Origin: a virus
IMG/VR virus record: IMGVR_UViG_3300026257_000002
Location: 68,523 to 132,522 of that record
Length of the DNA: 64,000 nt
Direction: 5' to 3' (one strand)
This document shows positions 1 through 46,185 of the stretch, piece after piece. The notes beneath the pieces were generated by a model, which was not told where the DNA came from, searched no databases, and saw only the letters and a list, made by a program, of their open reading frames with translations. Positions within the stretch are counted from its first letter, which is position 1. Every line of letters starts with the position of its first letter. The position numbers and the translations under genes were made by a program.

Positions 1-186
1 TCCCAAAATAGAAACTTTAAGTGCTTCATATACATGGACAGCTTCGTGAAATTTTACTTCACCATCTTTCCATTCTGCAGTATCATCTGCTTTTTCGTCC
101 CATTCCCAGTCAGTAATTTCTTCTAATTTTTGTTTTAAATCCGAGAGGGTATAAGAACCATCCCCTGATATTGTAAAATGTGTCAT
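1..186 (-). CDS. Hypothetical acidic protein, runs off the window edge
   Basis: Manual translation from ATG at 186: MTHFTISGDGSYTLSDLKQKLEEITDWEWDEKADD..., open to position 1; starts 20 nt after the stop of the 1881-aa gene. Confidence 0.65.
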   Translation of the reverse strand, partial: MTHFTISGDGSYTLSDLKQKLEEITDWEWDEKADDTAEWKDGEVKFHEAVHVYEALKVSILG

Positions 187-205
187 TTGATAGTAACTCC
201 TAAAA

Positions 206-3200
206 TTATGCTTGTGATTCTTTCCAGGTAACCCTAGAAGAAACTGAATATGGATTTGAGATGCTTACATCAGTAGAGTCAACAATATTTGCGACGACTG
301 TCAAGATGTCTGGACCGTTCGGGAATACTCCGTCACCACCCAATATTGCATTACCCAAGTCAGAAATCTCTGTTAGGTCATATTCAGTTCCCTGAGATTG
401 ACCGTTACCACTACCAGATGCTCTGAATGACAGAATAGTTGAACCACCAGCAACAACTTCATCAGATTCATGTTTGAGAAGTTGGCAGAGGGAAGGTTCT
501 TGAACATTTTGATAAGCATCACTGCTTAATTGTGCATTAAGGAGCAAACTAATTTCAGTTTCGTGTGTGGTAAGAATACCAACTGAATCAAGAGCTAATT
601 GCATTCTGTTAATAATTTCTCTTTCTCCCAGAGCACCTGTGATCGAAGAATCGACTGAAGGAGCAAGTCTAATTGAAATTAATGGGATATCCATAGGAAT
701 GACGTTATCAGTTCCAGATGGAGCACCAACACTAAATGTTTCTCCACTATTTACAGCTGGATTTCCTAGAGTAGAGTAGATTTGATTATAATAACCTCTT
801 GGGAAATATTCGATGACCCCTTCTGTATATAAGATGTAAACGTAATGTGTACTTCCAGAGGTTCTTGTTCGAGGATGAGTTCGCTTACCATCTAGGAAAT
901 ATCCATTTGCTACAGTAGTATTGTAAATAAGACTATTTGAAGGCAAATCATTGGCATAAGTACCAGCATCGAATGGGATACGGATATAGTATCTTCTAGT
1001 ATACCAGTTTATATATTCTTCAATAATGGCAGAGTTACCATTACTAGTTACATTAACAGAAGTAGCGTTTGTATACTTCTGGACGTTACCGGATGCTGTG
1101 AATAAGTATGCTTCGTCATCTTGATACATACCATCCATAATAACTGAAGTACCCCAATGGAACAGAGTTCCTGTGTAAGTGGGAGCATTACCATTTTCAA
1201 TTTCGTAACGAGCAGGTAGGTTACCTGAACGGAAGTAAGATTCAGTATCGATGTTGTTGTGCTTGAACTCATGCATATACTTGACGTGACCATTCTGATC
1301 CTTAAATCCGAAGCGGATCTTACCAGCACCATACCAGGAGTAATCCATGTAGCACATCTGGATCTTAGAAATATCTAAGGTATATCCAGAAGGACCATCA
1401 CCATCTGCCTTATCAATGTTCCAGTTGTTTTGAGCTACGCGAGTATCAACTGTTTTAGTACAAATGACATTTGAAGCAGTGACACCCCTATATGCAGGTT
1501 GAACAGTCAATTGACTGTTGCTAGTTACCTTAACAACTCTGTATGACATGCCCCTAATCACAATATGATCTTTGATACTTAGTTCAGAAGTAAATTTGGT
1601 ATCAGTGCCAGTAACAATATTACTTCCTTTATTAACTGAAACTCTTCCAGGAATTTGAAGAACTGAACTTCTTCTAACACAATTCAATGTAGACCCATTA
1701 AATTCATAGAAGAAACCATTTTGATTATCAAACATACCTGCGCGAACATCACATTCAGACCAGGCAAGAACTTGTACTTTAGGGAAACCACCAGAAGAAC
1801 TATTGGTAGGTTCATTATCTAGAAGATACTTAAAGTTAAAATCATCAATAATATCACAGGCATATGAAGTATGATTAAAATGTGTTTCATCAGAATCAAC
1901 AATTTTAACTGCGATATTTGTAGTTAAATTATGTGGTTTGGATGTTCTAATAACACCTTTGTGAATTTGGTTGAAAGTGACAACTTCGGAAGAAAGAGCA
2001 CCAGTCAATGGTTTATCTATTGTAAATGTAGTTGCATTATCTACACTAATAACTCTAGTGCCAGCGGCAATACCATTACCACTAATAGGCATTAAAGCGA
2101 GAATACCTGAAGTGTCGCTTACAGTTAGGGTTGTTTCACCTAGAGTGCCTGTAGCATTTTTTGTGGTCAAAGTTCCTTCAGTTGCATATGTAAGATCAAG
2201 AATCGGAATTAATGGGATGAAATTCATTGCATATGAAGTTTGGATACCTTTACCAGACTGATAGCGGAAATACTTACGTGTCTGTCTAGAAATTCTAGCG
2301 TTAGGTGACTTAGCAGTACCAATTTCCATACCACCATCGAACGGTCTATGGAGATAGAAACCATCAGGTCTTACATAAATGTAAGAAGGAATTAGATAAA
2401 CAGCTGAACTGTCAGTGAAATTAAAGTTTGAATCTACTAAAAGATTATCATCGTCAGTAATAGCAGTAATTGTTTTTTCGATTAATGTACCAGGAGAACT
2501 GGTAGCATCAACAACTTTAATTTTATCACCAACCTTGAAGAATCTTTGGAATGCAGCATTACTTCCAACAATTTTTCTTGATGCACTATTAACTTCGATT
2601 GTACCAGGACCGGATACTTCACCAGAAATATTACTGCTATAGAATTGTTGAGTTCCGCTTCCTGCAGACAATGTAATTCCATTATCAGATTGAGCATCAC
2701 TCTCGCTAGCACAAACTCTGAAATTATTATTATCCATAATAGAAATCCAATAATCAGCACCGTCAGTTAGACCACCAATAACAGAACCTCCAGCAGCATC
2801 ATAAATTACTCTTGTTCCAGTTCCAAAATAGTGATTGTTAATTGTTATATGTGTTGAAGAAACATTCGCCGAAGCATCAAAACCTTTTGTTGATGGAGGA
2901 ACTTTAAATGGAACTGTAACTTCCAATTCAGTATCACTAATGGCTTTGGTTGTCGTATAAGAACCATCAACTACACCAAAGTCAGCAGTTGTATTTTCAA
3001 AAGATTGAATTCCCGCACCCACTCCTGATAATGTAATCATACTACCACCTGCTGATGAGGCGAGAGTAAATCTATTACCATTAATATTGGTAAGAAAATA
3101 TGAAGATCCATTACTAAGACCAGTTATTTCAGTTCCAGTTGTCTCATACTTTAAGACTTCTCCACTAGTGAATTGATTATCTGCAATATAAATTGAGTTT

Positions 3201-13227: not shown

Positions 13228-14409
13228 TCAGTCAAGGCTGACGTTCAATGTAATCTTGATTTGGTCACCGTTGTTCTGAATGGGGTATGGACCATTTGTA
13301 AATCTTTCAGCAAACATGATGCTGCTGTAAAGAGTAAGGTCGCCAGTTCCTTTCAGAGCAGGAGTTGTAGTAAATGTATTGGCATCAGCTACAGAGAATA
13401 CTGTATATGTAGCATCAACTGTACCACTGTTTGTTGAACCTTGTGCAATGTAAATAACATCACCCACAACCAAACCGTGAGAAGTAGCAGTTACTTCACT
13501 ATACTCAAGAGTGATTGATGAGTCGGTAGCAACCTGAATGTTATCGATCAGAGCATTGTTCAAATAGATGATTCTATTAAGAAGATCGATACCGATGATA
13601 GTGGTATTTGAATCAACGCCGTTGTTACCAGTAACATCCATTCCAATTGTGATGTCATCCATGATGGAAGCAACGTTTGGAAGAGTGATGAAGGAATTAC
13701 CAACAACACCATTACAAGGATCTGTGTTATCACCCTTAGTAAGAACTGATCCTGCAGATGCATCGGCAGCATCAACTACACCCTGAATTGTCAGAGGCAT
13801 GTTGTTAGCACGAGCCAAGTAGTAACCATAAACATTACCAGCAGCAGCTTGGAATGTGAATGTTTGCTCTGGATATGTAGCAGTTGTAACTCCACCAGAG
13901 AAGTTGATTGTTCCAGAAACAGCACCAGAGTTAGCTACAGTCAGAACGATAGTCGAACCAGAAACTCTAGATACCTTACAACCAGCACCGATACCAGTAC
14001 CAGAAACAAGGTTACCAACACTAATAGTTCCAGTTACTGAAGATACCGTAATTGTGTACTCAGCAGAAGTTCCTGTGCCGGTTCCAGATGCAACAGGATC
14101 TCCAGCAGTAGCAATCGCCCAGCGATTACCGTTTAAAAGGATGCCATAGTTATTATCATATGATTGATCAGCACGGTTGTTAACTACTTCAGGATAACCT
14201 GTTGCAAGCGGTGCTGTGGTTCCATAACCATTAGTATTACCATCAACATAAGGCTCATAGTAAGCAGTCGTAGAAGGAACATCACCTTCTGCGGGGTCTG
14301 TGTTTGATGTAAAAAGCTTTAGAGTTAGGTTTCTAGGGATCTGATGAGTAGCATTCAGCAAATAGCGAAGCGATTCTACCTCACCAATATTAGGTACTAA
14401 AAGTGCCAT
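13228..14409 (-). CDS. Cyanophage virion structural protein (393 aa)
   Basis: N-terminus MALLVPNIGE...LKLFTSN and C-terminus FAERFTNGPYPIQNNGDQIKITLNVSLD resemble conserved cyanomyovirus structural proteins. Confidence 0.7.
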   Translation of the reverse strand: MALLVPNIGEVESLRYLLNATHQIPRNLTLKLFTSNTDPAEGDVPSTTAYYEPYVDGNTNGYGTTAPLATGYPEVVNNRADQSYDNNYGILLNGNRWAIATAGDPVASGTGTGTSAEYTITVSSVTGTISVGNLVSGTGIGAGCKVSRVSGSTIVLTVANSGAVSGTINFSGGVTTATYPEQTFTFQAAAGNVYGYYLARANNMPLTIQGVVDAADASAGSVLTKGDNTDPCNGVVGNSFITLPNVASIMDDITIGMDVTGNNGVDSNTTIIGIDLLNRIIYLNNALIDNIQVATDSSITLEYSEVTATSHGLVVGDVIYIAQGSTNSGTVDATYTVFSVADANTFTTTPALKGTGDLTLYSSIMFAERFTNGPYPIQNNGDQIKITLNVSLD

Positions 14410-28967: not shown

Positions 28968-30539
28968 TTAGAATTCTACGACCAATTTGACATCTTCAAT
29001 TTGATCAATAGAACGAGAAACAGTTCTTCTGTTCTCAACATAAATGATGTCACCAGTATATTTTTTAATTTCTGGTGATGAATAACCATTAGCAAAAGTT
29101 AAATTGGAAGTAGTCAAACTATAAGTAGTGTCTGGAGTTTCAACAGATGATGAAAGTGCTCCAGTGATTGCATTTGAACCAGAGAAAGGAGTTAAATCCC
29201 CACCTTGGTCACCGGTAGCAATGTGCTCGTAGCTGCTCTGATATACTTTAAGGATTTTAGTGCTAGCATCCCAAGAAACAACTTTGCCTGAAGCACCGGT
29301 TGTAGATTGTGTTACAGTCTCGTCAATATTAAATGAAGCGACTGTTGCAGATGGAAACTTAATAGCAGTCAAACCATTATAGGTAGAACCAGCAGCTGCT
29401 CCACCACCAGACTCTTCAGGATTGCGAAGAACGCCAATTCTTCTGAAATCCGTATCAACAGGGAACTCAAGGTTCTCATCATATTGAACTCTGGAGTTTA
29501 CCATGACACGCTTAGTGCCAAGTTCCTTATAGATGTTATATCCATGTCCACCTGCAGGAGGAATGATTACTTCCAAAACTGCTTCTGCTCCAGGAGCTCC
29601 GATACCAGAGATTTCAGTTGAGTTTACGTTGATATAACCGTAGGTATATCCAGAACCGGGAGTAGTAATCGTTACTTCAGTCACAGCACCGCTGCTAACT
29701 TTGACTGTCGCAAGTGCTTGTGAACCTCCGTTTTGTGCCCAGTCTCCACGAATAGGAACATTAATATATCCAGTCGAAGCATTATCAGTATATCCTGTGC
29801 CACCTGTATTAATTACTACGGTGTCGATAGCACCGTCTACAGCGGCTGCTTTAACATCAACACCATTAGCGGGGTCTCCAGCAGATCCAACACCCCAGTT
29901 AGCAGGGACGGGGGCATAGGAGGTTGTGAAGAATTTAATTACATCATCAGTTCCAATGCTGTAGAGGAATTTCCACTTGTAAGTATCAGCAGTTGTGAAG
30001 ATAGTAGTACCAGTTCCAGTAGGGGCAACAGTAGAAGCAATACCATTGGGGTTGGCAGGTGATGAACCATTATAGATACACTTATAAACTTTATAGTCAC
30101 TTACGACATAATATTTTGCAGAGTAAATATGTGGTGCATTTTCTCCGGCAGAGTTTGCCTTGAAATCTGCGCTATAGTTAGAACGATACATTGAATATGT
30201 CGTTCCTGAAGTCCAATTATGTCTATTAATAACTAATCTAACATCTGATGACTGAATTCTCTTAAGAGAAATCATATCATCAAAAATTTCTTTCTCGTAA
30301 TTGAAACTATCGATTGGCGTAGGTGGATTGTTCTCATCAGGAGCGGCAAGATAAGATCCACTGTGCTGACTACCTGAAGCTTGACCGACATATGAAGTCG
30401 CACCAGCTACAGCAGCAGTATCCCAATCTTGGGGTCTACCCATGAAGAAGTACATATTCGTAGGGGCTGCCTCGGAAAATGCTTCTTCAAACTGTTGGGC
30501 ATTATGAATTCTAAATTGTTCAGAAATAAGTGCTGGCAT
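28968..30539 (-). CDS. gp8: Baseplate wedge subunit gp8
   Basis: MPALISEQFRIHNAQQF...W..G..Y.MY...Y.VYKCIYN...DTYKWKFLY...GDIIYVENR; lies directly after gp7. Confidence 0.85.
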   Translation of the reverse strand: MPALISEQFRIHNAQQFEEAFSEAAPTNMYFFMGRPQDWDTAAVAGATSYVGQASGSQHSGSYLAAPDENNPPTPIDSFNYEKEIFDDMISLKRIQSSDVRLVINRHNWTSGTTYSMYRSNYSADFKANSAGENAPHIYSAKYYVVSDYKVYKCIYNGSSPANPNGIASTVAPTGTGTTIFTTADTYKWKFLYSIGTDDVIKFFTTSYAPVPANWGVGSAGDPANGVDVKAAAVDGAIDTVVINTGGTGYTDNASTGYINVPIRGDWAQNGGSQALATVKVSSGAVTEVTITTPGSGYTYGYINVNSTEISGIGAPGAEAVLEVIIPPAGGHGYNIYKELGTKRVMVNSRVQYDENLEFPVDTDFRRIGVLRNPEESGGGAAAGSTYNGLTAIKFPSATVASFNIDETVTQSTTGASGKVVSWDASTKILKVYQSSYEHIATGDQGGDLTPFSGSNAITGALSSSVETPDTTYSLTTSNLTFANGYSSPEIKKYTGDIIYVENRRTVSRSIDQIEDVKLVVEF

Positions 30540-30587: not shown

Positions 30588-33500
30588 TCACCCTCGCCAA
30601 GCGAGTCTTAAGTAATCGGTATCTGTATGTGATGTTGCTGTAGTTCCCTTCACTCCTCTCACGACAGTAAAATCTTGTCCTGAAATTGAAGTATATTCAA
30701 CAATTTCATCTCCAAACTCCAAATATCCCGTTGGAGGGAAGTTGGAAACATCGCCAGTAACAGTAATTGTAGTAACAGTATCATTGATATTGCCATTCAA
30801 TGTAAGACCATATGAAACATATGCTTCTGGTCCGATATTAATAATATTTGGTTCAGTCGCTCCTTGCGAAACTGCTCTATGAGTTGTGAAATCGCCAACG
30901 GTCAGTGCTGGCGCATAACGATTCATGTGTTGAATAGTAACTCCAGTTCCAAGATATGATGCGAGAGGATCATTAATTCCATGTGGTTCATAAGAGAACT
31001 TATTATTATCAAATGTCTGAAGGTTATATGCCAAACCTGCTTCAGAAGTATTTCTGATCATTTGATTTTCCATCTCAATTACAGTTGTGTTTGATGAAGT
31101 TAATTGCGAAATAACAAGTGGCACAGTGACTTCTTCATCAATATCACTGCTAACACTAAATCCAGGTAATAATGCATTTGCCAAAGAAATATCAACAATT
31201 GTATTATTTTTCATATACAATGGTGTGTGAGGTCTAATAATCTCATATTTTTTAGCAAAAATTAATTCAGGTGGTTCTGTATATCCAGAACCCGGATTTG
31301 TGATAATAACATTAGTTACTTTACCATTGGTAATTTGAGCAATAGCTTCTGCACCAGTTCCTGGATTATCACATTCGGTTTTAAATAGAATGATAGGAGC
31401 TACATCATACTCAAGACCAGGATTTGTTATATTAATACTAGTAATTGGTCCTGGAGCAAATACTGTAGGAATACCCATTGTATTTTCAACACCTATAGTT
31501 CCATCAATTCCCACTGGATTACCACCTGAAACAGAACTAGCAGTAAGATCTATTACAGCATTAGCAACAGCATTCTTGCCACGGACATAAGCATTATCTG
31601 TATATATTAATGCTGTATAAACTAAGTTATCAGTATTTTTAAGTGCCTTTTCCTCAACTCTAATAATTTCTTTAACTGATTCACCATCAATTCTGATCTT
31701 ATCACCTGGTTTAATAATATCTCCAGTATTTGCAACCTTAGTTAGATATTTACATCCTTCAGGACTATTGTCGCCAATATATTCCAAGTTTTCAAATACT
31801 TCACCATTCCAGATTGAAATAGTCTTCTCAAACACTTTACCATAGAAATATAGCACAAAACATTTTTTCCCTGTAGTGGGTGCTTCAGTAAATGTAATTA
31901 CATTATCAACAATAGTATATGAAGATCCCTCTACTTGAGGAACCCCGTCAAGCATAATTAACATTTGATGATCGTCAGGAGGAAGAATATTATCATCACC
32001 AAATTTAAATTCAAATGATCTTTGACTCGAATTAAATTGATCCGCAAAATTATTTAAGATTTTATATTTACTGAATGTATAAGAGAAGAAATGTCTGTCT
32101 TTTTCTATTACATTAGTAAATTTAATTACATTGGGATTTACGCTTCTGTCAATGGTATAAGATTCTCCATAAAGTTGAAGGACACCATCAATAAAGACTA
32201 GCAGATTTTCATCTGCCTCTGTGGTGACATTAGAACCATTGATTTTGTAAAGAGGATAGTCGGTGCTAATCCCATCAAACAAGATATTTTTTAATTTATA
32301 CGAATAGCGAGCATCATCACCAGCAGAAACAAATTTAAAGAAAGTGGAGTGGAATACAGTTCCTTTTCTTACTGGTTCATATAGTTTAAGTATTGCATTA
32401 GAATATTCAAATTGACCTTCAGTAAAAGTGGCATTTGTCAAACTTGATGATTCAATAGTTCCAGAAGTAGTGAGGAAATCATCTAAAATAGTTAAATCTT
32501 GAATATAAAGTTGGTTACAGATTGCAAGGCTCATCATATCTCTTGCCTTTTCAAAAGCAGTGATAGATTCATTTACTTCACCTGCAAGACCATTACTTAA
32601 TAAAGCAGATCCATCCAAATATTTTTGAGTAGAACTTCTAATATTAGAATTACCACCTGTTCTCAAATCACCAATAACAGAATCAACAATTAGACTTAAA
32701 TCCCTCTTGCATTTTGCTTCACCAGCAGAAAGAATTCTTACTGATTCTGCTGGTAAAGATTGTGGATAATTTAATGATCCTTGAGATAAGTATAGTGTTA
32801 CGATTCCAGCAAGATTATCAATATTCGATTTAATGTCAGCACATGCGCCATCACTGTTATTTGAAACAGGAGCATTGACCACAGGTCTTACAATGGCATC
32901 GGTTACTGCTCTAATGAAAGTATGTGGATACTCACCGCCTGAAATAACCACAGACTGATTCAGTGCATTACTGGCAGCACTTACAAATGTGTGAGGATAG
33001 TCACCACCACTGATAATTGCATCAGTGAGAGCAGAAACAAATGTATGTGCCGAAACAATTGATGTAGTACCAACTTGAAGTGTAATTGTAGTATCGCTTA
33101 CAGAAACAACAGGAATTGGTTGATTATAAGAACGGTCACGCTTATGCTTAATACTATCAGTAACACCACTCTGGAATACATGAGTAGTTACGTTTGTGGA
33201 AGGTGTAGTTGTTAGAACTTTAACTGTAAATGTTTGTCCATCAATAGCGGAAACTTGTAACCACTTACCACTTACAGGGTCAGTAGCTCTTGGATATGCA
33301 TGATCAGATGATTGACTATCTTCATCACAACGGAAGGTTACAGCACCATCATCAAACTTAACCCAATCACCTACCTTAATACCATGTGTGGTACCTGTGT
33401 TAATAATCATTAGACCTGTAACAGGATCATATGTTGTACCAGCACCAGGAGTATGTGTATCAATTATATTTCTTGGATAAGAATGAGTATCTGCTGGATC

Positions 33501-36500
33501 GGCAGCAACACCAACTTGGACATCAATTGTAGTTGCTTGTGGATTTAATACTGCAAGGTTAGATCCAGATGCAGGGTCAGTAGATCTTGGATATGCATGG
33601 TTAGTTGCATGAGCATCAGCATCACAAGTAAATGTAACACCACCATTAGCAATCTGCACTGTGTCAGAAGTTGTAAGACTGTGAGATCCAATCTCGATAG
33701 TCATTACACCTGTGGATGGATCATATGTTGTGCCAGCAGCTGCTGTAACAGCACTACCAACACTAGGAGTAATAGCATTAGTAACACCACTTACAAATGT
33801 ATGCGTTCCAGTAGCAGCACCACATGTGAAAGTAATACCATCGTCAAGCATTTTTACAGTGGCATTAGATTTAATTCCATGAGTTCCGATAGTCACTTCC
33901 ATCAAACCAGTTGAACTATCATAAGTTGCATTAGTTGGAGTATAATTTACAATAGGTGACGATCCAATATTAACAGTAAGATGATCATCGGTTGCAGTAA
34001 GAACAGTAGATCGTCTTTTAGAAGCAGGATCAGTTGATCTTGGATATGAATGGAAACTAACATTATCATCTTGAGTACAAGTAAAGGTCAATCCATCATC
34101 TCCAAGTAAAATATTATCTCCTACAACGAATCCATGATCATTTGATGTAATACCCAAAATTCCAGTGGTGGCATCATAGGTCGCATCAGTTACTGTATAA
34201 AGTCTTGGGACATATGTATGATCTGATGTGTCAGTAGAACTACCAACATTAATTGTGATAGTAGTTGCAGTCTTTGTTATAATAGAAACTGCAGTATCAA
34301 AAGTCTTATCCTTTTTCTTCTTCAATCCATCATTGACTGCACTGACAAATGTATGTGTAGAAGTATTAGATGAAACTCCTATCGCAACCCTAAAAGTGTT
34401 TCCTGTTACAGCATAGATTGGTATCCACTTACCACTGAATGGATCAGTAGAACGAGGATATGAGTGGTTAGTAGCATTTCCATCCATTCCACAAGTAAAT
34501 ATTAGGGAGTCATTATCAAATTTAATAAGATCTCCATTGTTCCATCCATGATTATTAACAGTAACAGTGAGAACACCAAGTACCGGATCATAAGAAGCAT
34601 CTGTAACAGTTTCACTTAAGATATCAGTCTTAGGGTAACGATGCTCAGTTTGATTATTGTCTAAATCGCAGGTAAATGTAAGTGATTCTGGTTCAATCTT
34701 AACACTTGTACCTGCTCTTAAAGAGTGGTTTCCGATAGTTAACTCAAGATCTCCTGATACAGGGTCGTAATTAGCATCACTAATAGTAAACGTTTTTTCT
34801 GGACTTGCCCCTACAGTAATATCAAAAGTATCACTAGTTACATTAGAAATTGCTAAAGATTGCTCATGGTTTCCATCAGCAAGTCTTGGATAGGATTTTT
34901 CTGCAACATTACCATCCATTCCACAATTAAATGTTAATCCATTTGACTTGATTACAACATCATCTCCATTATTGAGACCATGATCGACAATTGTGACTTG
35001 AGCAACACCTGTTACAGCGTCATACGTGACATCTGTTGGTGTTCCAACCGCATCTCCCCAGTAACTAGCATTGCCAGCAGTAATGGTGAGATCTTTAATA
35101 AGAAGTTGATTTACAATTGCTTGCTTCATCAAATCCCTAACTTTATTGAATGCAGTGTTAGATTCTAGAATTTCGCCAGAAAGACCATTGCTGATGAATG
35201 ATGTTCCTTGGTCATTAAAATATTTCTTAAGGAATTTACGAGCATACACATTACCGCCTGTGTGAATATCTAGTGATACTGCATCAATAAACATTCCAAT
35301 ATCACGCTTACACTTTGCTTCCCCAGTAGTATCAGTCCCAATGTTTTCTGCTGGAAGACCGGTAGTAGATCCTGCATTAATTGTGGTAGTTATAACACCG
35401 ATAAGAGTTGTAAGGTTTGAAGTTATATTGGCACAAAGAGGAGAACCAGAATCAGCAGTAATGGTTAAGTCTTTAACCAATAATTCATTGGTAAATGATT
35501 TAATCATTTCATCGCGAGCAAAATTAAATGCTACAATTGATGCTGCTTCTTCACCTTGTAATCCATTATTAATAGGATTACCAGAATTATCAAAGTATTG
35601 TAATACAAATTTTCTAGTATACTCATTACCACCATTTACTAGATCAATAGAAGAGTAATCGATTAATAATCCGAGATCACGCTTACACTTTGCTTCCCCA
35701 GTAGTATCAGTCCCAATATTTTCCGCTGGAAGACCACTTATAGATCCTGCTGTGAATGCAGAAGTAGCAATACTAGAAAGAGTTGTAAGTGATGAAGCTA
35801 TGTTAGCACATAAAAGAGCACCACCAGCAGCACCTACGTTAATTGTAAATGTATTTGTATCTGCTGCTGAGATAGTAAGAGTATTCTGATATGCTATATC
35901 TCTCTTCTTACTAACACCATCAGCAGTAGCTGATACAAATGTGTGTGTATAGTTTCCACCAGTTATAACCGCACCAGATGTTGCAGATACAAAGGTATGA
36001 GCATCAAGATTACTAATAGCACCCTGTCCACCATTAACATTAATTGTTATGGTAGTTCCAGTGGTTCCTGTTATTGGAAGAGCAGTATTATATGCGTAGT
36101 CAGCACCACCTGATGTGTTAGCACCAGAAGCACGAGGATATGTACCCTGATTATTGGTTGTCGCTGATGCTATACCAACATTAACTGTAACAGTTGTAGC
36201 AGTTGGGTTGGTTATTGCAAGTGCTGTGCCAGATACAGGGTCAGTAGCACGTGGATATGCATGATCAGTAGCATGATTATCTGCTGCACAACTGAATGTT
36301 ACTCCACCATTTGCAATGGTAAGTGTATCTGAAGTTGTAAGACTGTGTGATCCAATTTCTAAAACTAAATTTCCAGTTGTAGGATCATATGTTGTTCCAG
36401 CAGCTGCTGTAACAGCACTACCAACACTAGGAGTAATAGCATTAGTAACACCACTCTTAAATGTATGAGCACCAACAGCAGCATTACAACTAAATGTTAA

Positions 36501-39500
36501 TGAATTATCAGCAAGTTTAATGCTCTGTCCTGTTGTCAAAGAGTGAGAACCAATTGTTAATTCTAAATCACCTGTTGTACCATCATATGTTGCTCCAGTA
36601 ACGTTATGATTTACTAGAGGGGTTGTGCCAACATCAACTGAGAATGTATCTGTATCAACGTTAGAAATTTCTAACCACTGCCCACTAATAGGATCAGATG
36701 ATCTTGGATATGTATGATTAGTTGCATCACCATCCATTTCACATGTAAATGTCAAAGAATCATCAGCTATCTTAACAAAATCTCCATTCTCAAACCCATG
36801 ATTATCAACAGTAACTGTTACTATACCCGTAGTAGGACTATAAGAAGCATCAGTTGCTGTAAATATATCTACAGTTGTTCTTGGATAGGATTTTGTTCTA
36901 CTGGCATCAGTAACACTACCAACATTAACTGTAATAGTAGTCGCTGAAACCGCAGTGATAGCAATGCTTGTGCCAGATACAGGATCAGTTGCCCGTGGGT
37001 ATGAATGTTGCGTCACATTGTTGTCAGCATCACAAGTAAATGTGACAGCACCATCAGCAATCTGAATTGTATTTGAAGTAGTTAAAGTATGAGATCCAAT
37101 CTCCAATACAAGATCACCAGTAGCAGCATCATAAGTTGTACCAGACGCTGCTGTAACAGTACTACCAACGTCAGGAGTAATAGCATTAGTAACACCACTT
37201 ACAAATGTATGATTTGTATTACCATAATTACATCTGAATGAAATTGCATTATCAGCAATCGTAATTGTATTAGATGTTGTTAATAAATGATCATCTGAGG
37301 TAATTACCATCTCACCTGTGGATGGATCATATGTTGCACCTGTTACTGCGTTTGGTAAATTACCTGCATTTGATGTAACTCCATTTGTTACAGCAGATAC
37401 GAATGTATGTGGAGTATTGGGACTATTAGGATCATTAGTAATCGTAGTATCCTTAATTGTAAGTTGATTTCTAAACGCAAGGATCATATTATCCTTAGCA
37501 ACATTGAAACCATAAATTGCTTCTTCTTCTTCACCAACAATACCGTTACCTAAAGGATTTCCAGAATCATCAAAGAACTGTAGTGAGAATTTACGAGCAT
37601 ATTCATTACCACCATTAACAAGATCTAATGATGTATAATCAATAAAGAGACCTAAATCTCTTCTGCACTTAGTCTCATACGCTCCATGAGAAGGATATTG
37701 AGTAATAATATCAGTCCAAGCATTATTAATGATCTCAGTTCTATTTTGCTGAATCAGTCTATAAGCATCCTTAAAACGATAACTACTGTCTGTAGCAGGA
37801 TCGCCAGGGTAAATGTAATCAGGAAAACTTACACCAATTTGAGCAGCTGCTTTGTCAACAATTTCTTTATGATTCTGTTGAATTAATCTATAAGCATCCT
37901 TAAAACGATAACTACTGTCTGTAGCAGGATCGCCAGGGTAAACGAAATCAGGATGCTGAACTGCAATTTCACCGGCACCTCTATCAATCAATTCTTTACG
38001 GTTTTGTTGAATTAAACGGTAAGCATCTTTTGCTTTACTATATGCAGATGTTTGAGGATCATTTGGATAGTAGAAATCAGGATATTGTAGAGAAATTTCT
38101 GCATTTGCCCTATCAATAATTTCAAATCTATTAAGATCAATTAATTTAGCACCATCTCTATGTCGATTAGCACTAACAACAGTTGATTCTTCTTCATCCA
38201 ACCAAATACCAGTATTATTTGTAGGAAGATCAACAGTTGGATTATTTAATTGATATGTCAGAATATTAATTAAGCTATCAATCGTACTACGAACATCAGC
38301 ACAAACGTCGGGATCATTATTTGTCAGATAACCATTGGGGTTTTCAAATAAAACTCTAATGGTATTTGTTGATGGTACATCATACACCTCAAACTTATCA
38401 TTAAAATTTAAATTTCCAGTATTTGTTACAGCAGAGATGTGAATATATTTTTGGTTAGGATATGTTTGACCTACTGATGTAGTCGCTAAATTATGATCTG
38501 CGGCAGTAGTAATAGTTGCAATACCACCAACATAACTAATCCCAATTACAGAGGATGTTTGGAATGGTTCTTGGAATATATCATTTAATGAAAGAAGTAT
38601 GGAAGTATTGTAAGTATCTAATGGGAAATTACCATCATTTGTAGTCAAGGTATATGTTTGAGTATCAACATCAAAATCAGCAGAAAGATCTGCCATTTGC
38701 ACTGCTTCAATTTGATTATCTAAGAAATTAAGACGAGCAGCTCCTACACCACGATAAGCTTTTAAATCAGTTGTATTGAGCGTAGAAACTTCATATTTTT
38801 TGAAAACAATATCTGATTCCACATTCACATTAGGTAGTGTAATAATAACTTCATTAGCAGAATGATCATCAGCAAGACCAATACTAAATGGAGAACCTGT
38901 TACAGTATCATCGAAATCAACATCATTTTCTACAGATACCTCACCAAATAATTTAAATCCAAGTGGGTGTGTTGTTTCATCGACATATTTCTTATAATCA
39001 CTTAAAGATTTTGTACTTCTGATGACATAGGAAAAATCTTGGTAATAATAACTGTCAGTAATTTTTTGTGAGGAGGCACTAATCTTACCTAAATCAGAAT
39101 CAAAGAAACCAACTTTTGAAATAAATCCAGAAATATTTCCAACAATATCTGGATTTGTTATAGAATAAATTGTAGAGGTTACCTGTAAAATAGCACCTGT
39201 AAGTGTATCACCTACTTTAGGAATACCTGAGTTAATTTTTAAATCAAGTAAGTAAATATCAGTACCAATTTCTCTTATTTTTTCAATCTTAGCTGATAAT
39301 CCACTAGAAGATGATACATTTTCTGAAAGTTTATAAACACCACCAGAAATATCGGTAATGATTACTTTTTGTTTGAATACTAAAGATTTAGAGAATGTTC
39401 TATCAGGATTAAATTGACTTCCACTATTATTAAATCTAATAGTTTTAATTTTACCAATGCTATTACTAACTGGGAAAATTTTAGCACCAGCATCAATTAC

Positions 39501-42500
39501 TGTGATAGTATCATTTTCATCATATCCTTTACCAGCATCATCAACTTTTATTGAAATAATTTTACCACCTACAATTGTTGGCGTTATAACTGCTCCACTA
39601 CCAGTAGAAGTATTAATTGCAAGTTTTACATCACTTGAATATCTATTTCCAGAATTTAAAACACTGAATGTATCATCGAATGAACCACCAGTAATTGAAT
39701 ATGTTAATTTTGCTGAATCTAATTCACTATGAATAACCCCAGCAACTCTTGGGAGTTTTTTATAACCTTCACCACCATCAATTACATCAACAGTATTAAT
39801 CTCACCAACAGCAGTTTGTGAAGTTGTTGTATATGAAATTAAACCTGTGTAAGTAGGTTGTTCAGGTTGTGTGGAAGTGGTATACTTAAAACTATAGTCA
39901 TTAACAACTTTAGTAACTTTAATTGATTCTACACCATCAGGGAATGTAAGAACTGATAGGAAATCTTTATTATTGATAATTTTGTCGTTTTGTTCATAAT
40001 AATATACTCTAGAAACATCAAGATTCAGTAATGCTTCTTTTGTGATAGTCACTGTTGATCCAGAAGTACCTGCAGTTCCAACAACTGTTACACCGGTAAG
40101 ACTGTTAATATTTGCTGAATCTTCAGAGAAAATAAGACTATATCCAAAGATACTTCCGTCACTTAAATCAAATATATACTCAGTTCCTCTCATTAATGTA
40201 TGAGATAAGTCCCGAACATAATGGTTGCCAGTTCCAGTAGGATCAAATTCCCAATAAATCTGAGTGTCACTTATACTACTTATATTAAGATCTCTTCCTG
40301 ATGGTGAAGATGCATCTGTAAGAACACTAGAATCTGTAAGTGTGCCTGAATCAACTCGTATTTCAATAGTAGAATTTTCTTTATCAATACTATAAATTGT
40401 CCCAGACACACCAGTACTTGTAATTGATGACCCTACAGTTAATCTGTAATCTGGTTGATCATCTGGTATATAAAGTTCTACTTTATTAGTAGATGCATGT
40501 AATCTTAATGGACTATTAAATTGAGTTCGTTCGACAGTAATTTGATCTGAACCATAATCAATCGAAACAATTTTTAAAATTTCATCATTAATTTTTAAAT
40601 AATCATTTTCTCTATAACCATTAGAGTTATCTACGTTAATGGTTGTTTGGTTGAAAGCAACATCAACAACTAAAGTAGATTCAATAACAGGAGCGATGTA
40701 TTTTACTGTCTGATAATTAGATACTCTTACATTAAAAGTTTTTGATAATGATATTGCTTGCTTATCTAATGTTAATGTAACAATATCATTATCTGATAAT
40801 AAATGTGGTGTTGAAGTTTCTACAGTTACATCATATGTAATACCCGCCTTATGTAAATATGGAGCACTAAACTCAACTGGCCAAGGACTATCAGGAATTC
40901 CGTTAGTTGTCGTTAATTGTGGGTGACTAAATTCAGGAGAAACTTGATATGATACTGTAGTTACATCCTGACCTTTAATTGAGTCAACTCTACCAAATGC
41001 TCTAGAACCTTCGGTATCATCATTATCAAGATACAAGTAATCTGAGGTTTTAAATATTGCTTGACTTTCTTTTACAATAAAAGAATCAACAACTCCCCTT
41101 TCCACATTAGATACTGATAAAATAGCATCAAAACCTTTACTTGGTGTGGAAGAACTTCTAATTCTTCTTGCTGCTTTATTTAAATTATCTTCATTCTGTT
41201 GATTAAATTCAATATTAAAATTATTTTCTGCAGGCACAGAATAATATGTTTGTCCTACAATATATGGATAAATACCACCACCAAAACTATCTACTGTAAG
41301 AAAGTAACAATATCTTCCCTCAGGATATTCTGGAGTAATGCAAAAACGACCATTATTAATATCAAGACTTCCTGTTCCCTGAATAAACTCATAGTCATCA
41401 ATAAAAGAACCTAATGGATATGTTACTACGCTAGGTCTAGTAGCAGCTACCGTGGTTTTTAATAAATAAGAACTAGTTTGCCTAGAAATACCATTGGCAG
41501 GAACTGTTGCAGTAAGATATCCATAAGGACCATAAATGGGATTACCATCATATGCCCATCCTAAAATAGGAGAATGAACAAATCCAGATATTTTTTCATT
41601 ATAATTAGCATTTACACCCTGAACGTTATCAGATAATGAATGTCTAAGAATTCTTGGATTTGATGGATATGCATACTGAAGATTATATGCAACATTTCTA
41701 CTTGGATACAGATAACCATTACCAGTATCAGATTTAATTGTCTGAGCAGGTGCCCAGTTGCCATTTCCGTCAATAGAATTTCTTGTCTTGAATACTCTAT
41801 CAAAAGACCATTTCTTAACAATAGCATTAGCAACAACACCACTACCTTTGGAAATAATATTTACAACAATAGTATCTTTATCGCTATAATCAACACCACC
41901 ATTAAGTATAACGACACCAGTCAATTGATTATTAGTTATTTCAGCAATAGCAAAAGCACCTGTGCCTTTACCAGTAGTGTCAATAATTTCTACATTAGGT
42001 ATAGCAACATAATCCTGACCAGGATTAGTTACTGCAATTGACTTAATAGAACCATTAACGATATCTAGATCATTAACAATTGTTGCAGTGGCATCAAAAC
42101 CATATGTAACTTCTAATGATTGATCTTGAGTATATCCATTACCACCATCATCAACTGATATGGAAAATACCTTTCCGTCTGTAATATTTGCATTAAATGT
42201 GGCACCTGCCCCAGTAGCATTTGGTATTCTGAATATTGGTTGAATGTTGGTCTCAAAACCAAATCCTTTTTGAATAATTTCTACCTTTTCAATATTTCCA
42301 TATGGAACATCTTCATAATCTTGAGAACTAAATGCTTCTACACCATTATTAAACAAACCAACTGCTTTATTACCAGTATATTGAATTTGAGTATTTTTTT
42401 CAGTTGAAAGTGGAATTAACTTTAAAAGATTTTGATTGTTAACATTAAATCCAGTTCCGATAAATGATCCAATCGGATGACCAGGAAGTCCTGAAGAAAT

Positions 42501-43929: not shown

Positions 43930-45780
43930 TTATGCTGCTTCTTGGAATACCTGGAGAATGCTATCTTCTATTGAGAGATTTAAATATACTTCTCTCACTG
44001 CACTCACATCATCATTAAGGGGGATGGCACTGATAAAAATTTCACTGTCTTCATTACTGCCGCTAATGAATTGAATTGGATTTAAATTCACCTTACCATT
44101 AGTAAAATCAACGGATCCTACATTTTCAATTAGAATTTTTTTAGATGCAGTAGCAGAATCAATAGTATATATTCTAATTGCACCATCATCAGTATTTTCC
44201 ATATACGCATCATCGTTAGGATAATTTACCGTCCTAAATTTAGAACTTGTTATAGTAGTTTTTCCATCACATGATGTTTGGAACGGATTTACATAGCATA
44301 GTAAATATTGAGCTGTAGTATTAAGTGCTGGTGTTAATTTTTTGCGTAATACGAAGTCGCTAACATTACCTGTAATTGAACTTTCCGAGGCATCAACAAC
44401 TGTAGTTATTTTACTTTTTCTAATCACCCCACCAAACTTACTGATACTATTAGTATCTCTATATTGAGTTAAATTTTCAATTACAACATTTCTTATTTGC
44501 TCGGATGTTAAATTAGTATCAGTTTGCCTATAATAAATTTTAGAATTTAAAATTACGTCAACAAGTGATGGATCGACAATAATTGGAGTAACAGAAGCAA
44601 CTGTATACTTCTTAAGTTTACTGATAATATCTCTTTTAGTGGAATTACTTAAAATATCACTATATTTTGGTTTAATAGCAATTTTCACACGTCCATACTC
44701 AGGTGGTTCTTCAGTTTCACCACCATATACAATAATATCAGCAATTGATGAGTAAAGTCTTTGAGTAATTACCTTATAATCTTCTAATGTTACTGCTCTA
44801 TTTTGTGAAGAATAGAATGCGGGGGCATTTTTTCTGATTACTTCAGCATCTTCAATATCATCACCACCTTCAGAACCAACTACAACTGTTGTAGTGATCC
44901 CAGTTAAAATTCGGTTTAATTCTTCATCATAAATTTGACCAGAGAAAACAAAATTCTTCAATTTGTTTGCTGATTTACCTGAAGATGCAATATATGAAAC
45001 TTCAATAACTTGTCCATCAGTAACTTTTTTACCCAATACACCATCACCAAAAATTAATTCATATCTGGAATCATCAGTCTCTTGAACAAAAAATACTTTA
45101 TCAACTGCAGTTACATCAAGAATATTCTCAACTTTTGTAAAAATTTCAGTTTTAGATGCTGCAGCATTTTCTCTTACTACTACTTTAATAGTTTCAATAT
45201 CTATATTTTCAGTAGGAATGATAAATTTTTGATTAGCAATTGTATTATCTACAGTATAAGTAGAATTTAAATAAATTCCTTCAATTACCTGCAACTGATC
45301 TGATGAAACATTTGAAATATATCCAATATTATTTGTTACTGGAGATACAACATCTTCTAAAATAGAAAATTGATAGGTTTCGTTTCTATTTTCTGGATTT
45401 GATGAAACAAAGCAATTTCCTTTCTTGAGGGTAAGAAATGATGGCACTAATCTTTGATCGATAGCAGCAACACTACTAAAATCAACCTTTAACTTAAGGA
45501 ATGCCTTTGCTGAAGTTGTTGACTTTGGATTATATCCAAGTTGTTTAGCAACTTTTACGATATTATCTCTCAAAGAAGCAGACGCCAAAAAACTCTCATT
45601 AACTGCCATCGTAGTGTTGAAGGCAGTATAATAAGTGTTATATGCTAAGAGGTCAACAATAGAAGATAGTGTTGACCCTTCAAAGTCATAATCTGTGAAA
45701 TCAGTATTTCTCCTTAGATAATCAACTAAGGTAGATTTGATATCAGCGTAATCTAGAGAACTAACTTGTGCGAATGTCAT
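43930..45780 (-). CDS. gp6: Baseplate wedge subunit gp6
   Basis: LDYADIK..L..YL....FTDYDFEGS.LS..VDLLAYNT, YELIFGDG..G, QNRAVT.EDY motifs. Confidence 0.92.
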   Translation of the reverse strand: MTFAQVSSLDYADIKSTLVDYLRRNTDFTDYDFEGSTLSSIVDLLAYNTYYTAFNTTMAVNESFLASASLRDNIVKVAKQLGYNPKSTTSAKAFLKLKVDFSSVAAIDQRLVPSFLTLKKGNCFVSSNPENRNETYQFSILEDVVSPVTNNIGYISNVSSDQLQVIEGIYLNSTYTVDNTIANQKFIIPTENIDIETIKVVVRENAAASKTEIFTKVENILDVTAVDKVFFVQETDDSRYELIFGDGVLGKKVTDGQVIEVSYIASSGKSANKLKNFVFSGQIYDEELNRILTGITTTVVVGSEGGDDIEDAEVIRKNAPAFYSSQNRAVTLEDYKVITQRLYSSIADIIVYGGETEEPPEYGRVKIAIKPKYSDILSNSTKRDIISKLKKYTVASVTPIIVDPSLVDVILNSKIYYRQTDTNLTSEQIRNVVIENLTQYRDTNSISKFGGVIRKSKITTVVDASESSITGNVSDFVLRKKLTPALNTTAQYLLCYVNPFQTSCDGKTTITSSKFRTVNYPNDDAYMENTDDGAIRIYTIDSATASKKILIENVGSVDFTNGKVNLNPIQFISGSNEDSEIFISAIPLNDDVSAVREVYLNLSIEDSILQVFQEAA

Positions 45781-46185
45781 TTATATCTTTGATGATGACG
45801 TTAATGTTAACGAAGTGGTGAAAATTTGAGCACCTGTATCAGGAATACTATAAATTACTTGAATGTCATACTCAAATTGATCTTCATTCAAATCCAAAAC
45901 TACCTCAATCAAGTTAATTCTTGGTTCATATAAAGTAATTAAGGTTTCTACCTCAGTTTTAATAGATCCAGCAGTAGCATAATCAAAAGGTTCAAATAAT
46001 AAGTCAGGAATTCCACTACCAAAATTAGCATTAAAAAACTTTTCACCTTTCTTATAAGAAAAAAGATTAAGTAGTGACCTCTTAATCGCATTTTCATCCT
46101 TCAGAAGGTTTAAATCCTTCCGTAAAGGATTGGTTTTAAATGTGAAACTCAAGTCTTTGTAAGATCTTGATGCTTTTAATGCCAT
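45781..46185 (-). CDS. gp25: Baseplate wedge subunit gp25
   Basis: YKDLS..F..NP...DL..LKDENAIKRS..NL.....GE.FF...FGS...LFEP...YEPR. Confidence 0.9.
   Translation of the reverse strand: MALKASRSYKDLSFTFKTNPLRKDLNLLKDENAIKRSLLNLFSYKKGEKFFNANFGSGIPDLLFEPFDYATAGSIKTEVETLITLYEPRINLIEVVLDLNEDQFEYDIQVIYSIPDTGAQIFTTSLTLTSSSKI

Follow-up and report, generated by a model that had tools for sequence, protein, structure and literature searches.

Evidence that a small β-barrel module hosts copies of itself in the giant gp7-position protein of a T4-like cyanomyovirus

How is a protein built in which copies of a β-rich module are interrupted by other copies of the same module and continue only after these have ended? 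The question is raised by P0001, an intact open reading frame (ORF) of 4446 amino acids (aa) in a stretch of 64,000 nucleotides of DNA from a marine cyanobacterial virus (“the window”; positions 68,523 to 132,522 of the IMG/VR virus record IMGVR_UViG_3300026257_000002, a record of 132.5 kb with an estimated completeness of 71%). P0001 occupies the slot of the baseplate wedge protein gp7, and its aa ~2170–3686 comprise the whole region of interest. A preliminary description of this DNA had predicted a branched fibre that arises from one chain by insertion of domains into domains. On the evidence presented here, P0001 is very probably a gp7-position protein with two accessory clusters, of five and seven modules, in which one small β-barrel of ~100 aa acts as both host and guest through recursive insertion.

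The module is composed of four parts, namely A (ending in TFxC), B (HxYPR), C (ending in VxVG) and D (the HTFVSx hairpin). A hidden Markov model (HMM), built from the eight copies with contiguous A-B-C parts, was searched against P0001 and retrieved 12 A parts, in agreement with the approximately 12 non-tandem copies counted before. The copies form two clusters, tree 1 (five modules, aa 2172–2700) and tree 2 (seven modules, aa 2958–3686). Eight copies are matched in full (independent E-value, i-E, 1e-36 to 1e-41); in the four interrupted ones, the match ends at profile position 40–42 (copies at aa 2196, 2444 and 3332) or 57 (copy at aa 3050). Downstream, the HMM restarts at profile positions 45–53 and then 54–77 for the copy at aa 2196, at 48–75 for that at aa 2444, at 45–51 and then 56–77 for that at aa 3332, and at 54–77 for that at aa 3050. 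These short restart matches are individually weak (i-E 0.001 to 1). As they restart at the matching profile positions, they show objectively that the interrupted hosts resume at their break points, as originally proposed.

Once the D motif is added, the part counts become equal, with A, B, C and D each present five times in tree 1 and seven times in tree 2. The part strings of both trees vanish wholly when complete ABCD or DABC units are stripped repeatedly, and a shuffled part order fitted this nested grammar in none of 200,000 trials for tree 1 and in none of 100,000 for tree 2. The mapped order of the parts thus fits the nested grammar only, including the closing strands said to stack like parentheses, which are the D hairpins at aa 3626–3686. 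Tree 1 is parsed as d1{D,A}[d2]{B}[d3{A,B,C}[d4{A}[d5]{B,C,D}]{D}]{C} and tree 2 as d1{A,B,C}[d2{A,B}[d3]{C,D}][d4{A,B,C}[d5{A}[d6]{B}[d7]{C,D}]{D}]{D}, which gives a nesting depth of four barrels.

Guests are found at the three fixed points that had been named in the preliminary description: (i) 5–6 residues past the Cys of TFxC, (ii) between the invariant YPR and an invariant Asp, and (iii) past VxVG, ahead of the D hairpin. Counted from the parse, these sites are used three, three and four times, respectively. The YPR site is exact, in that the host restarts at the invariant Asp, which normally lies two residues beyond YPR. Branch points with guests in different loops are d1 of tree 1 (hosting d2 and d3) and d5 of tree 2 (hosting d6 and d7), and d1 of tree 2 carries two guest subtrees in one loop. 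The putative branching at d1 of tree 2 is read from the grammar, and that at d1 of tree 1 from the grammar together with weak HMM matches. The part order A-B-C-D, previously taken to be general, holds for most modules; what had been overlooked is a circular permutation, D-A-B-C with a D-to-A linker of ~19 aa, in the root of tree 1 and in all three guests that follow TFxC. A parse without permutation, in which the HTF strand after TFxC would be the B-like strand of the host and the later xxYPR the D part of the guest, was rejected because the ranges to which solved barrels align on the guests (see below) begin at or just before the HTF strand and end ahead of the host YPR.

A natural record of such insertions is provided by the relatives of P0001, for which 61 loci were collected in two IMG/VR scans. 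Tree 1 is absent as a block from all five relatives examined (~70% identity), where the junction reads uninterrupted from one helical unit to the next. Tree 2 has three modules in L005, L006 and L010, five in L003, and seven in L001 as in the window, and the three-, five- and seven-module orthologues also reduce completely under the nested grammar. In L003, d5 is one contiguous A-B-C-D module, whereas in the window and L001 it carries d6 after TFxC and d7 after YPR; the spliced d5 pieces of the window align end to end with d5 of L003 (43 of 98 residues identical). The orthologue indels, therefore, comprise whole modules at exactly the proposed sites, as the preliminary description requires. 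No barrels were found in the more distant homologues L012, L013 and L015, which have 5–6 tandem helical units. Since near relatives differ by whole modules and distant homologues are without barrels, the trees are, judged from these comparisons of sequence, accessory elements, with gain and loss proceeding by whole modules at the sites proposed.

The pattern is general: 31 of the related loci contain the A[DABC]BCD subtree, in 39 distinct sequences altogether. For the distant loci, a tolerant reduction statistic was used, as full parsing failed for most of them; the nested grammar removes 65% of 1993 part tokens (43 distinct ORFs from the 61 related loci), as opposed to ~3% in shuffles. The d4-d5 subtree of tree 1 (35955–36617, minus strand) is 69% identical to L016:7396-8133, from another IMG/VR phage lineage, and 54% identical to its own paralogue in tree 2, which suggests that whole subtrees are exchanged between phages. 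The three D-A-B-C units share just 74–76% DNA identity, which disfavours the idea that they arose by recent internal duplication; taken with the likeness to L016, exchange between phages is no less likely than such a duplication. By megablast against the GenBank phage collection, from which records of the window's own genome were possibly excluded, no DNA relatives of the region were obtained.

Whether the interrupted copies can also form single folded domains was addressed with AlphaFold2 (AF2) models of tree 1 (541 aa; mean predicted local distance difference test score, pLDDT, 81.7; predicted template modelling score, pTM, 0.44) and of the d5-d7 subtree of tree 2 (317 aa, aa 3326–3642; pLDDT 85.6, pTM 0.56, no segment below 50). 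The models were compared by VIA-align with 48,161 PDB representatives, each match being defined by its first and last aligned residue, with Z below 8 throughout. Solved single-domain barrels of ~80–105 residues align with ~64–100 residues onto nested ranges in both models. In tree 1, range 185..513 (68–100 residues aligned) corresponds to d3 A-B-C plus a D hairpin 230 residues further on, range 274..493 to d4 A plus B-C-D, and range 317-327..420-423 to d5. In the subtree, the domain-2 barrels of EF-Tu, SelB, eRF3, LepA and aEF1A align 65–78 residues onto range 1..317 (Z 5.6–7.3, root mean square deviation, rmsd, 2.5–4.1), and other barrels align to 44-58..147-150 (d6) and ~161..275 (d7). Given that single-barrel PDB domains align onto nested ranges, non-adjacent segments are predicted to form one barrel, as expected from the preliminary description, rather than to fold segment by segment. 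In the model, the d5 barrel of tree 2 holds both ends of the 317-aa stretch and skips two complete guests, which makes it a true branch point there. The d3 barrel of tree 1 was folded with its distant D hairpin despite almost no alignment cover. For the subtree, alignment A5 was used; A2 (full A[DABC]BCD and AB[ABCD]CD rows), A3 (trimmed) and A4 (short D-C-D) were dropped because MAFFT had registered guest and host parts onto the wrong paralogous module. Foldseek, to which whole multi-domain models are unsuited, returned nothing at E ≤0.001 for the whole 541-aa tree 1 model against the PDB.

As a further line of evidence, part A of tree 1 d4 was predicted as a separate chain with its own B-C-D parts, yielding an interaction prediction score from aligned errors (ipSAE) of 0.38, with 0.03 for the best control; at least 85% contact agreement was seen in the split-chain runs, with a partner pLDDT of at least 58. 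The result was rated “weak support”. Among solved complexes, 58 of 80 also attained this mark, as did 2 of the 110 mismatched pairs, and the zone of ipSAE ≤0.60 contains just 7 of the 80 solved complexes, yet both passing mismatches.

In the models, the fold of the module is that of a small barrel of the EF-Tu domain 2/FNR FAD-binding kind. The E1 FCCH domain (PF16190), EF-Tu domain 2 and the FNR FAD-binding domain have this arrangement in common (Z 5.6–7.3; for tree 1, UBA1 FCCH at Z 6.9 and FNR-type FAD-binding barrels at Z ~6); E1 FCCH is without significant sequence relation to the module (1 of 55 modules matches), and Z values below 8 may mean a common fold only. Among the Pfam-named Atlas clusters, a viral E1_FCCH cluster lies nearest (0.92). 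At or near the top of both VIA-align lists stands an endosialidase barrel (4hiz_A, residues 255–338; Z 6.8–7.0, thus below 8; rmsd 2.2–2.3, 74–77 residues aligned, 17–23% identity), with the phi92 endosialidase match to tree 1 reaching Z 7.0 at rmsd 2.2 over 77 residues. The corresponding family, PF12195 (End_beta_barrel), scores at best 20.8 bits against a cut-off of 35 bits (E 4e-4), and 2 of 55 modules match it at E ≤0.01. The endosialidase barrel, too, is found in phage tails and sits there within another domain as an insert. Phage endosialidases (phi92, K1F) have one barrel each and no self-nested array, and the His/Cys/YPR/Asp signature is that of the cyanophage module alone. PDB sequences yielded no match to tree 1 by phmmer, and the profile of 55 modules gave chance-level matches only in the PDB (BB0238, and iota-carbonic anhydrase at E 0.009 without a passing stretch). 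According to BFVD, the module is present in many cyanophage proteins named “structural”, “tail fiber” or “baseplate wedge initiator”; a “baseplate wedge initiator” of Synechococcus phage S-SSM7 is among the similar proteins there.

Among 55 diverse modules from the relatives, Cys, YPR, Asp and the His of part D are invariant, and the His of part A is present in at least 90%; in the window, His(A), Cys and His(D) are found in 12 of 12 copies and His(B) in 9 of 12. It is conceivable, albeit doubtful, that the D hairpin, which reaches its barrel from far along the chain, is clamped there by Cys and the histidines of parts A and D, a metal ion possibly being involved. The three copies without His(B) are tree 1 d1 (36879–36920), tree 1 d4 (36135–36176) and tree 2 d1 (34884–34922), all on the minus strand and reading K/G-S/T-YPR instead. 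A permuted guest follows TFxC in two of these three, and His(B) is likewise lacking from most A[DABC]BCD hosts in the relatives. In such hosts, the HTF strand of the guest trails the host Cys at nearly the normal spacing of the B His; possibly, this strand substitutes at the conserved His(B) site of the host.

Several observations weigh against recursive nesting as outlined above, or limit what it implies. The discontinuity of the barrels is known from models, via the end residues of VIA-align matches with middling Z values (<8). Parts B and C of tree 1 d1 were modelled at low confidence (pLDDT <50–55), for which reason this branch point is taken from the grammar and the weak HMM matches. The B and D strands look alike, and HMMER at times aligns HTFV.. 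as B; hence, that the D part of permuted modules belongs to the guest is judged from the ends of the VIA-align ranges. Many distant loci parse incompletely with the crude tokeniser (regular expressions plus HMM), the unreduced tokens being mostly attributed to this tokeniser, cut contigs and stray motif matches. As to function, the module reaches no Pfam threshold. Finally, with pTM values as low as those of the two models, the barrel-to-barrel arrangement is unsettled and an open tree shape is unsupported. Of the earlier claim that the product is dendritic rather than linear, it is the branched topology of the chain that is borne out by grammar, AF2 and VIA-align.

A route by which such a chain could be laid down follows from the parse. 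The chain would leave a phycobiliprotein-like helical arm at a junction between units, begin a barrel, and exit it by one of three permissive loops (post-TFxC, YPR/Asp or pre-D hairpin). One or more guest barrels, circularly permuted to D-A-B-C where they are set after TFxC, would then be built before the outer barrels are finished in reverse order. It is because the outer barrels close in reverse order on the return of the chain that the His-bearing D hairpins would stack at the end, and the innermost domain could fold first and the outer ones last. Growth of the trees would occur as DNA coding for modules is inserted, some of it acquired by exchange with other phages.

The published case found for such an architecture is Si3, an insertion in the β' subunit (RpoC2) of cyanobacterial RNA polymerase, with eight hybrid-motif domains, several of which are assembled from distant segments, in a six-level recursive arrangement with bifurcating nodes (PMC10895346, PMC13114784). 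In a 2026 survey of 2.7 million classified domains, the six levels of the cyanobacterial RNA polymerase are a highlighted example of deep recursive nesting (PMC13114784). Both Si3 and the gp7 trees use a small β-rich module as host and guest over multiple levels with bifurcating nodes, contain domains made from distant chain segments, and are inserted as a whole array into a host protein; the principle is the same, in a different protein and with what appears to be a different module. While Si3 is set in the catalytic trigger loop and built from the sandwich-barrel hybrid motif (SBHM), the gp7 trees belong to a predicted virion baseplate protein; no SBHM or RpoC2 chain is among the best 50 VIA-align matches per gp7 model, which excludes nothing. 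The gp7 trees differ further in having 12 modules in two trees at a depth of four instead of six levels, regular permuted guests, and a module number that varies between close relatives. In keeping with the novelty presumed in the preliminary description, no paper was found on recursive self-insertion in gp7 or any other virion protein.

Domain insertion is common; a single module that recursively hosts itself is rare. The gp7 trees would offer a second, independent system in which to study the folding of nested chains, in which the innermost domain comes first and strands returning from afar close the outer ones last, and the natural variants with 0, 3, 5 and 7 modules would be a direct handle on how domains become grafted into loops. 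That “giant” structural proteins of marine cyanophages need not be beads on a string bears on baseplate cryo-electron tomography and on host-range work, and annotators and domain databases are cautioned that standard tandem-repeat logic mis-segments such proteins.

What the clusters do is less certain than how they are built. We tentatively favour a role as a variable host-surface contact device, perhaps glycan-binding, that would project from the periphery of the baseplate, because the number of modules differs from one near relative to the next, and because a phage barrel that binds glycans is the nearest in fold. More elaborate, and improbable as a whole, is the notion of metal-clamped (His/Cys/His), multivalent glycan-binding bushes whose module number and topology would set the host range, with whole modules shuffled between phages and with exposure or orientation coupled to light through the bilin-type units; light coupling is conceivable because the trees are grafted onto junctions of bilin-type phycobiliprotein-like units. 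Light-dependent adsorption is reported for some cyanophages.

Alternatively, the nested build could be real and yet give a compact rod or club of packed barrels, serving as a strut, spacer or stabiliser of an oversized cyanophage baseplate instead of an open branched adhesin. We regard this as rather unlikely, though deserving of serious attention: in Si3, the sole analogue in print, the nested domains are packed into an elongated, “swordfish-shaped” body (PMC10895346), the pTM of the three-barrel subtree hints at some fixed packing, and no ligand-binding family was matched above threshold. On the other hand, relatives at ~70% identity differ in module number (tree 1 has 0 or 5, tree 2 has 3, 5 or 7), some homologues have none, and such variation, typical of host-contact parts, would be poorly tolerated by a load-bearing strut; moreover, the polysialic-acid-binding barrel of endosialidases is among the nearest folds. 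That P0001 contains ordinary linear or strand-swapped repeats, with the nesting an artefact of short motif matches and AlphaFold bias, is very improbable: weak B-only and C-only HMM matches, the likeness of the B and D motifs and the partly misregistered MAFFT input alignments would allow for it, but the nested grammar never occurred in shuffles, what orthologue indels take out is exactly whole modules, with an uninterrupted A-B-C-D host left behind, AF2 closed d3 of tree 1 at almost no alignment cover, the A[DABC]BCD pattern is common to those 39 sequences, and the split-chain score is well above its controls.

Recursive nesting being the preferred explanation, the scaffold that carries the trees remains to be described. 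It consists of helical units with a K-C-x-R-D motif, which is invariant in 31 units (chosen by the motif [KR]CxRD). PF00502 (phycobiliprotein) matches these units with 34.1 bits against a cut-off of 22.2, 6 of the 31 doing so individually, and in a search of the 31-unit profile against the PDB, phycobiliproteins were the sole matches (best E 1.9e-5); by these profile matches, the helical units are relatives of phycobiliproteins. The K-C-x-R-D motif aligns to AKCxRD of phycocyanin alpha, i.e., the Cys84-type bilin-attachment position, and the aligned part, residues 40–103 of phycocyanin alpha, spans the first helix of the unit through the K-C-x-R-D helix. Both trees had been placed in the same loop of the helical repeats. 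They do occupy the same kind of site; from the extent of this alignment, however, we infer that it is a junction of ~15 aa between consecutive units rather than a loop within one. As described before, the helical junction between the two trees is free of an insert. Directly upstream of unit 1 (window ~37680–38080, minus strand; aa ~1950–2085) lie three tandem helical repeats of ~48 aa, each with a P-D-F/Y-x-Y-P motif ahead of KDAYRLIQQN-type helices; the repeat nearest to unit 1 also serves as its first helix. A CpeT-like ORF (bilin lyase family) is encoded in the virus record ~9 kb upstream of the window (G000:C1:59482-59919).

Table 1. Positions (in the window) of the barrel trees, helical units and neighbouring genes.
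Feature	Position	Strand	Evidence
Giant gp7-position ORF P0001, 4446 aa	30588-43928	-	Synteny; Pfam Baseplate_wedge and PHROG baseplate wedge matches
Tree 1, five barrels, aa 2172-2700	35829-37415	-	HMM, grammar, AF2, VIA-align
Tree 1 d1 root, permuted: D hairpin, linker and A	37218-37415	-	HMM 1-42 at aa 2196-2237; AF2 pLDDT 58-80
Tree 1 d2: whole D-A-B-C barrel after TFxC of d1	36921-37217	-	HMM; pLDDT >90
Tree 1 d1 part B, resumed after d2	36879-36920	-	HMM 45-53, weak; AF2 pLDDT <50, hence grammar-based only
Tree 1 d3 parts A-B-C	36618-36878	-	HMM 1-77; VIA range 185..513
Tree 1 d4 part A	36474-36617	-	HMM 1-40; VIA range 274..493
Tree 1 d5: whole D-A-B-C barrel after TFxC of d4	36177-36473	-	VIA ranges 317-327..420-423
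Tree 1 d4 parts B-C-D, resumed after d5	35952-36176	-	HMM 48-75; VIA-align; split-chain ipSAE 0.38 vs control 0.03
Tree 1 d3 closing D hairpin	35922-35951	-	Model strand 498-503, within VIA range 185..513
Tree 1 d1 part C, resumed at invariant Asp	35829-35921	-	HMM 54-77, i-E 0.001; AF2 low confidence
Tree 2, seven barrels, aa 2958-3686	32871-35057	-	HMM, grammar, orthologues, AF2, VIA-align
Tree 2 d1 root parts A-B-C	34800-35057	-	HMM
Tree 2 d2 parts A-B	34629-34799	-	HMM 1-57
Tree 2 d3: whole A-B-C-D barrel after YPK of d2	34326-34628	-	HMM
Tree 2 d2 parts C-D	34200-34325	-	HMM 54-77
Tree 2 d4 parts A-B-C	33954-34199	-	HMM; missing from 3-module orthologues
Tree 2 d5 part A, branch-point host	33804-33953	-	HMM 1-40; VIA range 1..317
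Tree 2 d6: D-A-B-C barrel after TFxC of d5	33507-33803	-	VIA ranges 44-58..147-150; missing from L003
Tree 2 d5 part B	33471-33506	-	HMM 45-51; pLDDT ~70
Tree 2 d7: A-B-C-D barrel after YPR of d5	33147-33470	-	VIA ranges 159-166..271-278, one row to 297; missing from L003
Tree 2 d5 parts C-D	33003-33146	-	HMM 56-77; VIA range 1..317
Tree 2 d4 closing D hairpin	32934-33002	-	D motif; grammar
Tree 2 d1 closing D hairpin	32871-32933	-	D motif; grammar
Helical unit 1 (KCRRD); tree 1 after its C-terminal junction	37434-37802	-	Pfam, profile
Helical unit 2; junction to unit 3 without insert (aa ~2819-2839)	35445-35816	-	Sequence, profile
Helical unit 3; tree 2 after its C-terminal junction	35064-35438	-	Sequence, profile
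Helical unit 4	32484-32849	-	Sequence, profile
gp25	45781-46185	-	Pfam
gp6	43930-45780	-	Pfam
gp8	28968-30539	-	Pfam

The assignment of P0001 to the gp7 slot is based on its neighbours, which by Pfam give the order gp25-gp6-P0001-gp8, all on the minus strand, and on baseplate-wedge profile matches, namely PF23786 (Baseplate_wedge) at aa 1621–1665 (29.9 bits against a cut-off of 27) and phrog_2885, “baseplate wedge subunit” (E 9e-240); by synteny and profile, P0001 is the occupant of the gp7 slot in a T4-like cyanomyovirus. The gene order and the baseplate wedge profile matches are common to P0001 and gp7 of T4, whereas the helical phycobiliprotein-like units and the barrel trees of P0001 match no baseplate-wedge profile here. 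T4 gp7 has ~1030 aa, as compared with the 4446 aa of P0001. Within P0001, there is also a YHYH domain (PF14240, E 5e-27; window 41289–41594, minus strand; aa 779–880), whose role there is unexplained. According to the barrel HMM, the module is not carried by the other giant ORFs of the window (1881, 2340, 2520, 1947 and 1110 aa); outside P0001, the HMM gives a single weak partial match (profile positions 13–33, i-E 0.002), which falls in a 393-aa ORF at 13231–14409 on the minus strand.

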